Assembly: GCA_964436815.1 (NCBI GenBank)
Contig: CAYTER010000017.1
Coordinates: 6,804 to 38,803 of the forward strand
Direction: 5' to 3'
From: an uncultured Syntrophomonadaceae bacterium
GTDB lineage: Bacteria > Bacillota > Dethiobacteria > DTU022
DNA length: 32,000 nt
In this document: one piece after another, positions 17,264-18,866 of the stretch
Layout: each line of letters opens with the position of its first letter
Position numbering within the stretch: the stretch's first letter is position 1
Notes under the pieces: model-generated
What the model was told of the DNA's origin: nothing
Seen by the model: only the letters and a program-made list of their open reading frames with translations
Databases searched by the model: none
Made by a program: the position numbers and the translations under genes

Positions 17264-18403
17264 TTATACAAAAAAAGACAGGACCAGAGTTACAGCCCCG
17301 GCTGAAGCTGATATGATGATCACCGGCAGGGCTACCCCCATTTCCTTAACCACCCCGGAAAGCGAAGTATAGGTCGTGGAACCGGTGAAGTTGAGACTTA
17401 GAAATGACGCAATCGCCGGAATGGCAAGGAGATAAGAGGCTTTCAGAAGCCAGGATGAACCGCTGTACAAAGTGGTCACCAGCAAAGCGGCCAGCACCGC
17501 TCCGCTGATCCAGCCTTTCCAGGCCAGGGCGCGCCCCGGGATATAGGGCAGTAAGGCGGGGGCCAGCACAGTACCGGCCAGGGCTGCGCCGATAAAGGGA
17601 AGCAGGGTGTAACCTGTTCTGCCAAGGGCTGCCGGAAATGCAAATTGCCTGACTGAAATCAATAAAGCAACCGAGCTGAGTAGAAAGAGCAGCAAAGCCA
17701 GGCCGGCCAGTGGCTTGAACACGGCCACCAATTCAACCGGAGTTAATACCAGCCGGTCGATCAGGGAAAAGGTAGTACGACGCATATCGTTTTCTGCTTT
17801 ATGCCCGTTTTCAAGGTAAGCGGGTATGTCACAGGCTTTTACAGGGCCATATTTTACCCTGAACCCACTTTCAGCTTTTACCAGGTGAGCAGCCACGCCC
17901 GGTGCGCTGAGTTGCGGCAGGATCAGTGACCGGTGGCTTACCAGTTTGGAAAGTTTCGTTTCGTTTACCATGCGCACAATTTCAGCTGTGCCGAAAGTCC
18001 CTTTGCCCGCTGCACACCAGACATTGATTCCTTTAGTGTTGATCACCAGGATCCAGAGATCTTGTCTGCTGAGTTCTTTGCGCAGGCTGTCAAAACTTAA
18101 CTTATAGTTGGCGGAAACCAGCACCGGGGACTCCGGGGTGGGGTTGCCGACACAGTAAAGCCCCGGAGCAATAGCATAGTTCATCCGTCCCACTCCCCAG
18201 CGGGCTTTGACGGAACCAAATTGATCTGCTGCCGTTAACGCGGTTTTAACACGTTGCACCTGACCAATCACAGTCTCCTTTGTGCCGTCCAGGATGCTTT
18301 CATTATAAGGATAGACAGTTTTTTCTGCTTCCTCCTGTGAAGTTATGCAACAGGAGACAGCTTCACTTTCATAGATCGGCAAATCGCTGTTTTTACTGAT
18401 CAT
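17264..18403 (-). CDS. hgcA: HgcA, corrinoid protein of the mercury-methylation pair
   Basis: The diagnostic cap-helix motif INVWCAAGKGTFG is encoded at about 18002..18025, with the Cys codon at 18014..18016. The C-terminal domain has about 5 predicted TM helices, including NFTGSTTYTSLSGVVKE. I place the start at ATG 18403 (MISKNSD...), with a GGAGG about 12 nt upstream and an 11-nt overlap with the regulator stop. The ORF-track start at 18538 would overlap the regulator by 146 nt. Confidence 0.9.
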   Translation of the reverse strand: MISKNSDLPIYESEAVSCCITSQEEAEKTVYPYNESILDGTKETVIGQVQRVKTALTAADQFGSVKARWGVGRMNYAIAPGLYCVGNPTPESPVLVSANYKLSFDSLRKELSRQDLWILVINTKGINVWCAAGKGTFGTAEIVRMVNETKLSKLVSHRSLILPQLSAPGVAAHLVKAESGFRVKYGPVKACDIPAYLENGHKAENDMRRTTFSLIDRLVLTPVELVAVFKPLAGLALLLFLLSSVALLISVRQFAFPAALGRTGYTLLPFIGAALAGTVLAPALLPYIPGRALAWKGWISGAVLAALLVTTLYSGSSWLLKASYLLAIPAIASFLSLNFTGSTTYTSLSGVVKEMGVALPVIIISASAGAVTLVLSFFV

Positions 18404-18866
18404 TAGTTGTGACCTCCACGCAGCAGGATGTCTCTTTGCTTTCAACAACAGCGCGGGTGAGCAGGCGAACGCTTTCCAGAACCTGCTGCTGTTTATCCGC
18501 CGGGATTCTGCTGAAAATTGCCTGGTAGTATTGATCAAAGGTCAGGTTGATGCGATTATATATTTCCTTTCCTTTAGCAGTAAGCGATAAAGTAATATAA
18601 CGACGGTCTTCCTCGTTGGGGTTGCGCTGCACCAGTTTGCCGGTAACCATGGCGTCTATTGTTCTGCTCAGAGTGCTGGAATCCAAGCCGAGCAATCCTG
18701 ACAGATCCACCAGCGAGAGCTCTTTTTTATTGCCGATTTCCAGCAGGGCATGGCACTGGGTTACAGTTATTCCACAGCAGTCGGCATCGTTTTTGGCCTG
18801 CCAGCCTAGTGAACGCTGTAAGTGCCTTAAGGTGTCGCGGAATAGGCGGATATCTTCGAGTTTCAT
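18393..18866 (-). CDS. MarR-family winged-helix regulator, cysteine-rich (candidate hgcAB regulator)
   Basis: Contains VTQCHALLEIGNKKELSLVDLSGLLGLDSSTLSRTIDAMVTGKLVQRNPNEEDRRYITLSLTAKG, which is HTH plus wing with the D-x-R motif typical of MarR. A CC pair precedes the HTH (DADCCGITVTQCH) and a second sits near the C-terminus (ETSCCVEV). GGGGAG SD lies 6 nt before ATG 18866. Confidence 0.8.
   Translation of the reverse strand: MKLEDIRLFRDTLRHLQRSLGWQAKNDADCCGITVTQCHALLEIGNKKELSLVDLSGLLGLDSSTLSRTIDAMVTGKLVQRNPNEEDRRYITLSLTAKGKEIYNRINLTFDQYYQAIFSRIPADKQQQVLESVRLLTRAVVESKETSCCVEVTTNDQ

Follow-up and report, generated by a model that had tools for sequence, protein, structure and literature searches.

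Two described regulators bear most closely on the gene considered here, a marR-type regulator gene that lies directly in front of the mercury methylation genes hgcA and hgcB in a stretch of 32,000 nucleotides (nt) of DNA, hereafter the window, from an uncultured Syntrophomonadaceae bacterium (assembly GCA_964436815.1, contig CAYTER010000017.1, positions 6,804 to 38,803). The control of hgcAB expression and the native role of HgcAB are both open questions in mercury biogeochemistry, and the sole hgcAB regulator tested experimentally so far is ArsR2, from a Desulfovibrionaceae strain. ArsR2 (DND132_1054) is of the ArsR/SmtB type and is co-transcribed with hgcAB in Pseudodesulfovibrio mercurii ND132 (Gionfriddo et al., 10.1101/2022.10.17.512643; Goni-Urriza et al. 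2020). Responses of this protein to arsenic and to S-adenosylhomocysteine (SAH) have been reported (10.1101/2022.10.17.512643), as has an effect of arsenic on hgcAB expression, and four cysteines have been proposed to lie in its metal(loid) site. The second regulator, AdMarR_ars of Achromobacter sp. As-55, represses both arsV and its own gene, and As(III) or Sb(III) releases both promoters (10.1101/2021.08.12.456183). Mutation of Cys36, Cys37 or Cys157 in this protein of 163 amino acids (aa) weakens the response (10.1101/2021.08.12.456183), and MarR_ars orthologues adjoin arsV, arsN and arsP in organisms that include Paenibacillus, Deinococcus and Clostridium (Yu et al. 2021, 10.1101/2021.08.12.456183).

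MarR genes beside hgcA have previously been mentioned only in passing. For bacterial methylators, a single annotation sentence, at the level of clusters of orthologous groups (COG), puts a gene of the MarR family in front of hgcA (Zhang et al. 2023, PMC10349881); it comes with no family assignment, cysteine analysis, operator, prevalence or arsenic link, and the two MarR proteins concerned were not among the loci retrieved in this work. A 'putative regulator' upstream of hgcAB was recorded in 112 genomes by McDaniel et al. 2020, where its family was not named, and that regulator may overlap with the MarR group described below. Within the literature searched, a single paper names both hgcAB and MarR, and none was found to link MarR_ars to hgcAB.

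The comparison presented here suggests strongly that the window gene encodes a dedicated autoregulatory repressor of hgcAB, which we regard as very probable. The fuller explanation that we prefer, with moderate confidence, is that of a MarR_ars-like autoregulator at the head of a metalloid-induced marR-hgcA-hgcB operon. Sequence and comparison are the sources for the fold, the gene overlap, the synteny, the predicted operator and the family relationship.

The regulator gene runs on the minus strand from an ATG at 18866..18864 to a TAA stop at 18395..18393, as read from the sequence; the mechanically called open reading frame (ORF) begins at a GTG one codon 5' of this ATG. With the gathering threshold as criterion, the translation matches both MarR family models of Pfam, MarR_2 (PF12802; 44.1 bits against a cut-off of 27, E = 2e-11) and MarR (PF01047; 42.2 bits against 24.6, E = 7e-11). 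An AlphaFold model built from a 53-sequence alignment (mean predicted local distance difference test score, pLDDT, of 84) has the canonical MarR order of helices and wing, with helices at residues 3-20, 35-46, 52-59, 63-75, 97-119 and 123-143 and strands at residues 79-83 and 91-95, and its top Foldseek matches were MarR, YusO, MexR and HpaR, at a probability of 1.00. As judged from Pfam, the AlphaFold model and Foldseek, then, the regulator is a canonical MarR-family protein. This bears out the original prediction, which had proposed a MarR fold together with a D-x-R-x5-L-T-x-x-G pattern and two vicinal cysteine pairs; both of the latter features are present in the translation, as D87-x-R89-x5-L95-T96-x-x-G99 and as the Cys-Cys (CC) pairs C30-C31 and C148-C149. 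The fifth cysteine, C38, lies within a Q37-C38-H39 motif. The model is less confident in the loop that bears the first CC pair (residues 21-34), and it shows the tail beyond residue 143, which bears the second, as disordered. A sequence profile search of the PDB with the regulator gave generic MarR matches (E ~1e-13) and no close solved structure, and no NCBIfam equivalog fits the protein, the best match, to BilQ, reaching 51.5 bits where the cut-off is 125. An ArsR/SmtB-type protein of the ArsR2 kind was considered and rejected, the regulator having no match to PF01022 (HTH_5).

Regulator, hgcA and hgcB follow one another on the minus strand (Table 1). The hgcA start codon at 18403..18401 produces an 11-nt overlap with the regulator gene, and the Shine-Dalgarno sequence of hgcA falls within the regulator coding sequence. 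These coordinates, which formed part of the original prediction, hold, and they agree with independent gene calls on four public contigs that carry an identical regulator: the boundaries are the same (MarR of 157 aa), and a 379-aa CdhD-domain protein begins 11 nt before the end of the MarR gene. Shine-Dalgarno-like motifs precede the hgcA starts in related loci as well. In the window HgcA, the cap-helix motif N127-V-W-C130-A-A-G-K134 corresponds to invariant columns of a further alignment (A3), the criterion for this motif being N(V/I)WCA(A/G)GK, and the HgcB translation contains two CX2CX2CX3C motifs and a C-terminal CC pair.

Synteny between this regulator and hgcAB is strong by sequence comparison, and it crosses phyla. 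A protein search with the regulator gave 124 homologues. Genome loci were collected at one genome per species by a scan driven by a 14-sequence alignment (A2), which was used because the 53-sequence alignment (A1) was too diverse for a locus search; 70 loci resulted, and, since the A2 peptide patterns include the CCG and QCH motifs, the cysteine statistics of this set are biased. A tblastn search with the window HgcA and HgcB located hgcA directly downstream of the regulator relative, on the same strand, in 28 of the 70 loci, and in those 28 hgcB follows hgcA wherever the contig reaches far enough. Indeed, hgcAB lies downstream in all 20 loci in which the regulator is at least 46% identical to that of the window. 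Judged by record titles, the hosts of the hgc-linked loci are Bacillota and Syntrophomonadaceae metagenome-assembled genomes (MAGs), Desulfovibrionaceae and other deltaproteobacterial MAGs, Spirochaetes and Treponemataceae, and Oscillospiraceae. A 29th hgcAB-carrying locus (L062), from a Prolixibacteraceae MAG, has the order hgcA-hgcB-marR.

Among the 20 closest genome loci the marR-hgcA junction varies between -25 and +19 nt, -4 (seven loci) and -11 (three loci, plus the window) being the commonest values. Moreover, four further homologues drawn from the unbiased homologue list (P0042, P0071, P0076 and P0100) are each followed, at -8 to +4 nt, by a gene with a CdhD domain; a ferredoxin gene comes next in three of them, the P0042 contig having a short CdhD-domain gene after which no ferredoxin was called. 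The tight coupling to hgcAB that had been noted in the window is therefore retained, as short junctions, in the 20 closest genome loci and on four further contigs. Across loci, identity of the regulator and identity of HgcA to their window counterparts are correlated (Spearman 0.76), which is what transfer of the three genes as a single module would produce.

A reverse survey started from hgcA. Metagenome contigs were ranked by similarity of HgcA to an alignment of the window type, and 69 of the best 80 loci had at least 450 nt of upstream sequence. A MarR of the window regulator's group stands directly upstream of hgcA in 23 of these 69, and an ArsR (Pfam HTH_5, PF01022) takes that place in 13, which makes the two the most frequent upstream genes in the hgcA-centred sample; the MarR type is thus the commoner of the two in a sample that is biased to window-like HgcA, and the counts are therefore not global frequencies. 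The other upstream genes included those for two SBF/ACR3-type transporters, one low-molecular-weight (LMW) phosphatase of the ArsC type, one HMA protein and one C_GCAxxG_C_C protein. The dedicated hgcAB regulator of the original prediction, for which a search of hgcA neighbourhoods for this MarR subtype had been suggested, accordingly finds support in three samples (28 of 70 genome loci, 23 of 69 metagenome loci and all four extra loci), with conservation across phyla.

A more distant clade of Cys-rich MarR proteins (26-34% identity) also occurs directly upstream of hgcA in metagenome contigs, ~100-600 nt 5' of it (L084, L085, L089, L090, L094, L097, L103, L112, L122, L134, L145 and L154). Its cysteine layout is RCCRQD..FCE, WLC in helix α5 and a C-terminal CxCC, without the QCH motif, and a strict TTGYA-N3-TRCAA sequence is found upstream in 7 of the 12. 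Candidatus Contubernalis alkaliaceticus, presumably closely related to Dethiobacter, has a regulator of 55% identity whose gene overlaps a shortened CdhD-domain (hgcA-like) gene of 257 aa (L161; CP054699.1, 1603788-1610258). No Fer4 (hgcB) gene was called after the CdhD-domain gene at this locus, and an rve-family transposase lies downstream, so that it looks like a decayed marR-hgcAB module.

The region upstream of the regulator contains a 21-bp palindrome with two perfect 9-nt arms, the right half-site of which is the -10 hexamer of the predicted operon promoter (Table 1). This promoter has an 18-nt spacer, matches the consensus at 10 of 12 positions and is the sole sigma-70-like match on the minus strand within 16700..19400; the palindrome covers both its spacer and its -10 box. 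The family core TTGTAATATACAA occupies 18904..18916, within the palindrome, and the 32-kb window has a single match to the core pattern TTGYANNNTRCAA, where shuffled sequence gives an expectation of 0.15. Inspection of the upstream regions of related loci revealed a shared inverted repeat 5' of the regulators, (G)TTGYA-N3-TRCAA(C), which is often in tandem. Of 68 related loci, 48 have the strict TTGYANNNTRCAA pattern in the 150 nt 5' of the regulator, and the remaining 465 kb of the 68 loci contain it only once. That one site, TTGTAAATTGCAA (L062:2620-2632), is upstream of hgcA in the Prolixibacteraceae MAG, whose permuted hgcA-hgcB-marR genes occupy L062:2708-4462; the operator therefore tracks the operon promoter and not the regulator gene. 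In several relatives the -10 hexamer is likewise the centre or the right arm of the operator.

The palindrome is far beyond chance, given its placement at the promoter and the conservation of its core in related loci. It had been named in the original prediction as a site for binding assays, and the comparison supports it as a family-wide predicted operator, (pseudo)palindromic and overlapping its own promoter as in the MarR family. Repression by occlusion of the promoter would be the simple reading. A second candidate site, TTGCAGTTACCAT (18888..18900), matches the left half-site but agrees with the right one at only 2 of 5 positions; being conserved among the closest relatives only, this sequence is not claimed as an operator.

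The closest relatives of the regulator that are not linked to hgcAB lie in arsenic-resistance operons. One clade stands directly upstream of arsM (NCBIfam arsenite methyltransferase, 289-311 bits against a cut-off of 263), often followed by a GNAT protein that is closest to ArsN1 of arsinothricin resistance (132-138 bits, below the cut-off of 170), and many of these loci have ArsR, ACR3, an LMW-phosphatase ArsC, ArsD or ArsA within 4 kb. Homologues on annotated plasmids (30-44% identity, BLASTP E = 1e-23 to 1e-43) are similarly placed. That of Clostridium felsineum precedes a GNAT gene and then ArsR, ACR3, LMW phosphatase, ArsD and ArsA; the Deinococcus homologue precedes ArsN2 (138 bits, cut-off 125) and an ArsO/ArsV-like flavin monooxygenase; the Cytobacillus homologue precedes an ArsO/ArsV-like monooxygenase; those of Priestia and Bacillus cereus precede a permease adjoining ArsR; and the Paenibacillus homologue precedes an ars island with arsM. 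The ars-linked plasmid homologues share with the window regulator a CC pair before helix α2, a C-terminal Cys or CC, and the operator type. In the ars-linked homologues of aerobic Bacilli, operator sites occur both 5' of the regulator and between regulator and cargo (L076:3414, 3943; L077:3389, 3417, 3943; L159:2939, 3456; L160:2943, 3460); the hgc-linked operons, with their overlapping genes, have the upstream operator only.

The cysteine pattern runs through both groups. C30 and C31 are kept in at least 90% of the 53 homologues of the unbiased set, 25 of 28 hgc-linked members and all 12 arsM-linked ones have a cysteine in the tail, and the hgc-linked and arsM-linked clades have the same cysteine set, including Q-C-H. 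C38 is replaced by Ser in Bacillus and Priestia members, in which the CC pair and the C-terminal CC are retained. The cysteine pattern, the homology to MarR proteins of ars islands and the shared operator together suggest that the regulator is a MarR_ars-like protein. Still other relatives (L045, L048, L049, L054, L063 and L066; L057, L060 and L061) precede a C_GCAxxG_C_C redox protein and/or a DVU_1556-like methyltransferase, or a cysteine synthase of the cysK/cysM type, and ACR3 is found close to one of the cysteine-synthase-linked relatives. Thiol, metalloid and methyl-transfer chemistry is thus the common theme of the family's cargos.

Taken together, these data are consistent with the following model. 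The regulator would act as an autoregulatory repressor of a three-gene marR-hgcA-hgcB operon, a MarR dimer binding at 18900..18920, covering the spacer and -10 box, and so blocking transcription of its own gene and of hgcAB; translation of hgcA would be coupled to that of the regulator via the 11-nt overlap and the internal Shine-Dalgarno sequence. As inducer we propose a metalloid in the trivalent state (As(III), Sb(III) or perhaps methylarsenite, MAs(III)), which would be bound by the thiolates of C30-C31 in the α1-α2 loop and of C148/C149, with C38 and H39 possibly contributing. Binding of the metalloid would lower the affinity for DNA, and hgcAB would be derepressed. Repression, co-transcription and the identity of the effector are the parts of this model that we infer. 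The non-hgc relatives lie in arsenic-resistance operons, and the operon is therefore probably switched on by arsenite-like metalloids; a trivalent metalloid is the inducer suggested by the common cysteine set of the hgc-linked and arsM-linked clades and by the match to MarR_ars. An effector of the As(III)/Sb(III)/MAs(III) type is accordingly judged moderately probable, by analogy with these relatives. The arsenite site of AfArsR is reportedly formed by Cys95-Cys96-Cys102 (CC-x5-C), and the bare pair Cys101-Cys102 of SpArsR is said to be selective for MAs(III). The CC-x6-C spacing of C30-C31-C38 presumably resembles the AfArsR site, in a different fold and at a different position relative to the DNA-binding domain.

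Several points weigh against this model. The metalloid part of it derives from relatives, and AdMarR_ars itself (QVQ28260.1) was compared by eye through primer-derived snippets of 13 and 8 aa only (RDRDRICCYDVSV and VASTCAAD). No ArsR, ACR3, ArsC, ArsD, ArsA, ArsM or ArsN homologue is present within the 32-kb window, and its own genomic context therefore gives no arsenic pointer. Only 16 of 28 hgc-linked members have the C-terminal CC, and the invariance of CCG and QCH in the 70-locus set is partly a product of selection by the retrieval patterns, which included these motifs. The conserved Q-C38-H39 is unexplained and could mean another or an additional ligand, such as Zn, an Fe-S centre or Hg. 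The promoter, too, is predicted from a consensus match only, and promoter counts did not exceed those in shuffled sequence. Finally, Hg(II) too is bound avidly by thiol sites of the As(III)-binding kind.

This last point leads to a reading in which the repressor and operon are the same and the inducer is Hg(II) or methylmercury, held in a MerR-like thiolate site on a MarR scaffold, so that the operon answers its own substrate. The regulated genes methylate Hg, and the regulator offers C30, C31, C38, C148 and C149. Vicinal or clustered cysteines have a very high affinity for Hg(II). In addition, the N-terminal CC of HgcA in the window and in 17 of 20 close relatives, and the CC end of HgcB, would fit a thiol-based module for handling Hg. 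We nevertheless consider mercury sensing improbable, for the same sensor cysteines recur in clades whose cargos, within ars islands, are arsM, ArsN-type and ArsO/ArsV-like genes, no relative adjoins mer genes among the ~150 loci examined, the responses reported for ArsR2, the only hgcAB regulator with experimental data, are to arsenic and SAH, and the relative AdMarR_ars responds to As(III)/Sb(III) (Yu et al. 2021). A redox or thiol-oxidation sensor of the OhrR, MosR or MexR kind, in which disulfides would release the repressor and tie hgcAB to redox state in a strict anaerobe, is rated slightly lower still. HgcAB chemistry requires low-potential electrons, a peroxiredoxin and flavin mononucleotide (FMN) reductases are encoded a few kb away in the window, and oxidised MexR (3mex) is among the Foldseek matches. 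Redox switches are indeed common among MarR proteins with cysteines; conserved vicinal CC pairs, on the other hand, are typical of metalloid sites, as in ArsR variants. An OhrR-type protein was rejected as a candidate: helix α1 (residues 3-20), the site of the sensing cysteine in that type, has none in the window regulator, and the NCBIfam OhrR model gives 25.6 bits against a cut-off of 200. Moreover, the relatives are embedded in ars islands and not in peroxide-stress operons. The thiol-sensing candidates of the original prediction, Hg(II), arsenite and redox state, are thereby narrowed, arsenite-type metalloids being favoured and Hg(II) and redox weaker.

The cysteines and H39 might alternatively hold a structural or co-repressor metal (Zn or Fe-S), the effector being a methyl-transfer metabolite such as SAH or a corrinoid or folate intermediate; this was proposed because the family cargos include several methyltransferases. 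The cargos are in fact enriched in methyl transfer (hgcAB, arsM and DVU_1556-like methyltransferases), ArsR2 of ND132 is reported to respond to SAH besides arsenic, and Q-C38-H39 is conserved in the anaerobe clades, where five cysteines and one histidine could ligate a metal centre. This alternative appears quite unlikely when set against the cargos with functions other than methyl transfer (ArsN acetyltransferases, ArsO/ArsV-like monooxygenases, a permease and cysK) and against the Bacillus/Priestia members, in which C38 gives way to Ser while both CC pairs are kept. A Zn-dependent MarR of the AdcR/ZitR type was likewise rejected, the NCBIfam model AdcR_fam_Zn_TF scoring 21.7 bits, far below its cut-off of 175. 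It could be, lastly, that the adjacency is incidental, with a general or differently targeted MarR and independent transcription of hgcAB. Some 60% of family members do adjoin genes other than hgcAB, and the promoter and terminator scans did not rise above shuffled sequence. Against this stand the overlapping or tight junctions conserved across phyla, the synteny at 28/70, 23/69 and 4/4 loci, an operator that stays with the operon promoter despite the permuted gene order of L062, and the single operator site in the window; the synteny and operator evidence effectively excludes incidental adjacency, to which we attach very little weight.

Further observations concern the operon genes and their surroundings. 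HgcA has an N-terminal vicinal pair, C18-C19 (18347..18352, minus strand), ahead of its conserved corrinoid domain; a CC within the first 45 residues is found in 17 of the 20 closest marR-linked hgcA genes, often in an LPM...CC setting. Vicinal cysteines thus occur in all three operon proteins, in the regulator, at the N-terminus of HgcA and at the C-terminus of HgcB. A G+C-rich stem-loop with a T-run (17279..17302, minus strand) lies inside the last hgcA codons, just before hgcB. Terminator-like matches numbered 5 against 3.1 in shuffled sequence and are not enriched; because the promoter and terminator counts are not above shuffles, the stem-loop is not claimed as an attenuator, and it may be due to chance or may influence the ratio of hgcA to hgcB. 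At its 3' end hgcB shares 4 nt (16928..16931) with the 3' end of a convergent gene for a YgjP-like metallopeptidase (16194..16931); this leaves no intergenic room for a terminator. An Rfam search found no riboswitch or other RNA near the operon, the only match being a tRNA at 22996..23066.

Table 1. Coordinates of the regulator, the hgcAB genes and the predicted control elements in the window
Feature	Position	Strand	Remarks
marR-type regulator gene	18393..18866	-	157 aa, Cys-rich (C30, C31, C38, C148, C149), putatively MarR_ars-like
Shine-Dalgarno GGGGAG of regulator	18873..18878	-	6 nt before ATG, read from sequence
hgcA, corrinoid protein of mercury methylation	17264..18403	-	379 aa; NCBIfam HgcA_corrinoid 435 bits, cut-off 275
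Shine-Dalgarno GGAGG of hgcA	18413..18417	-	inside regulator coding sequence, 9 nt before hgcA ATG
hgcB, 2x[4Fe-4S] ferredoxin	16928..17236	-	102 aa; NCBIfam HgcB_ferredoxin 110 bits, cut-off 99
-35 hexamer TTGACT, predicted operon promoter	18927..18932	-	consensus match only
-10 hexamer TACAAT	18903..18908	-	equals right half-site of operator; sigma-70-like match, overlap read from sequence
21-bp palindrome ATAATTGTA-TAT-TACAATTAT, predicted operator	18900..18920	.	two perfect 9-nt arms

Upstream of the regulator, at a distance of 122 nt, lies a gene for a 56-aa FmdB-family zinc-ribbon protein (CxxC...CxxC; 18989..19159, minus strand), which has the same position on public contigs of the same organism. 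The 32-kb window has no ars or mer genes, and its other genes have ordinary chromosomal functions: they encode a photolyase, a DNA methylase, a TetR regulator, a GH127-like protein, a Y-family polymerase, an amidohydrolase, a glycosyltransferase and PFK, and further a penicillin amidase, a tRNA, a peroxiredoxin, FMN reductases, HSP20, 6PGD and G6PD. Four sizeable ORFs (27..818, 2837..3880, 3905..4336 and 7067..8014) have no Pfam match at E <= 1e-5.

The locus thus offers a second, structurally unrelated (predicted) repressor of hgcAB with a defined operator and candidate sensor cysteines, and it opens the regulation of hgcAB, and the native role of these genes, to direct test in a second system that appears to be widespread, with AdMarR_ars as a characterised relative. 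The TTGYA-N3-TRCAA consensus can be used at once for regulon prediction in methylator genomes. Should arsenite-type metalloids prove to be the inducer, the link between arsenic and hgcAB would extend past one lineage and would have arisen by convergence, the view of Hg methylation as a side activity of a metalloid-related system would be strengthened, and As or Sb would become a concrete field co-variable for hgcAB transcription. A bolder and distinctly tentative proposal is that hgcAB is a cargo of arsenic and organoarsenical sensing circuits, a sister cargo to arsM that was captured independently by ArsR/SmtB and by MarR_ars-like repressors. If so, the native role of HgcAB would be tied to metalloid stress, for example to corrinoid-dependent methylation or handling of As or Sb, with Hg methylation as a side reaction, and arsenic exposure would control methylmercury production in a large share of methylators.

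In its basic design the regulator is read here as a MarR_ars-like repressor with the standard operon logic of MarR proteins, and an arsenic link of hgcAB was already known. What appears not to have been reported is the assignment to an arsenic-responsive MarR group and the frequency of this group at hgcA loci, the conserved operator and the conserved translational coupling, and the convergence of two unrelated arsenic-sensor families on hgcAB.

Compared with AdMarR_ars, the window regulator has the same MarR fold and a similar length (~160 aa), and it is predicted to share the habit of a repressor that binds its own promoter. The Cys36-Cys37 pair of AdMarR_ars corresponds to C30-C31, just before helix α2, and its Cys157 to C148/C149 near the C-terminus, where the window protein has a CC pair in place of a single cysteine. 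Homologues of the window regulator adjoin ArsN-type, ArsO/ArsV-like, permease and arsM genes, many of them in ars islands, and arsN, arsV and arsP are the partners given for MarR_ars by Yu et al.; the binding of AdMarR_ars to two promoters matches the two-site layout of the ars-linked homologues of Bacilli. The window regulator differs from MarR_ars in that its cargo is hgcAB and not an arsenic-resistance gene, its location being neither in nor beside an ars operon, and from AdMarR_ars in its extra conserved Q-C-H motif. It differs from the aerobic members, which have two operator sites (L076, L159 and L160) or three (L077), in having no second operator between regulator and hgcA, because these genes overlap. 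With ArsR2 it shares the position directly upstream of hgcA on the same strand, the richness in cysteine and, on the reading preferred here, membership of an arsenic-sensing family; ArsR2 has been tested by experiment, whereas the hgc-linked MarR proteins are known from sequence only. The original prediction had described the window gene as a different regulatory solution for mercury methylation. With respect to fold this stands, MarR being distinct from the HTH_5 (PF01022) fold of ArsR2; the signal, by contrast, is probably not different, being of the arsenic type in both cases. The MarR route therefore looks like a second, convergent tie of hgcAB to arsenic sensing.

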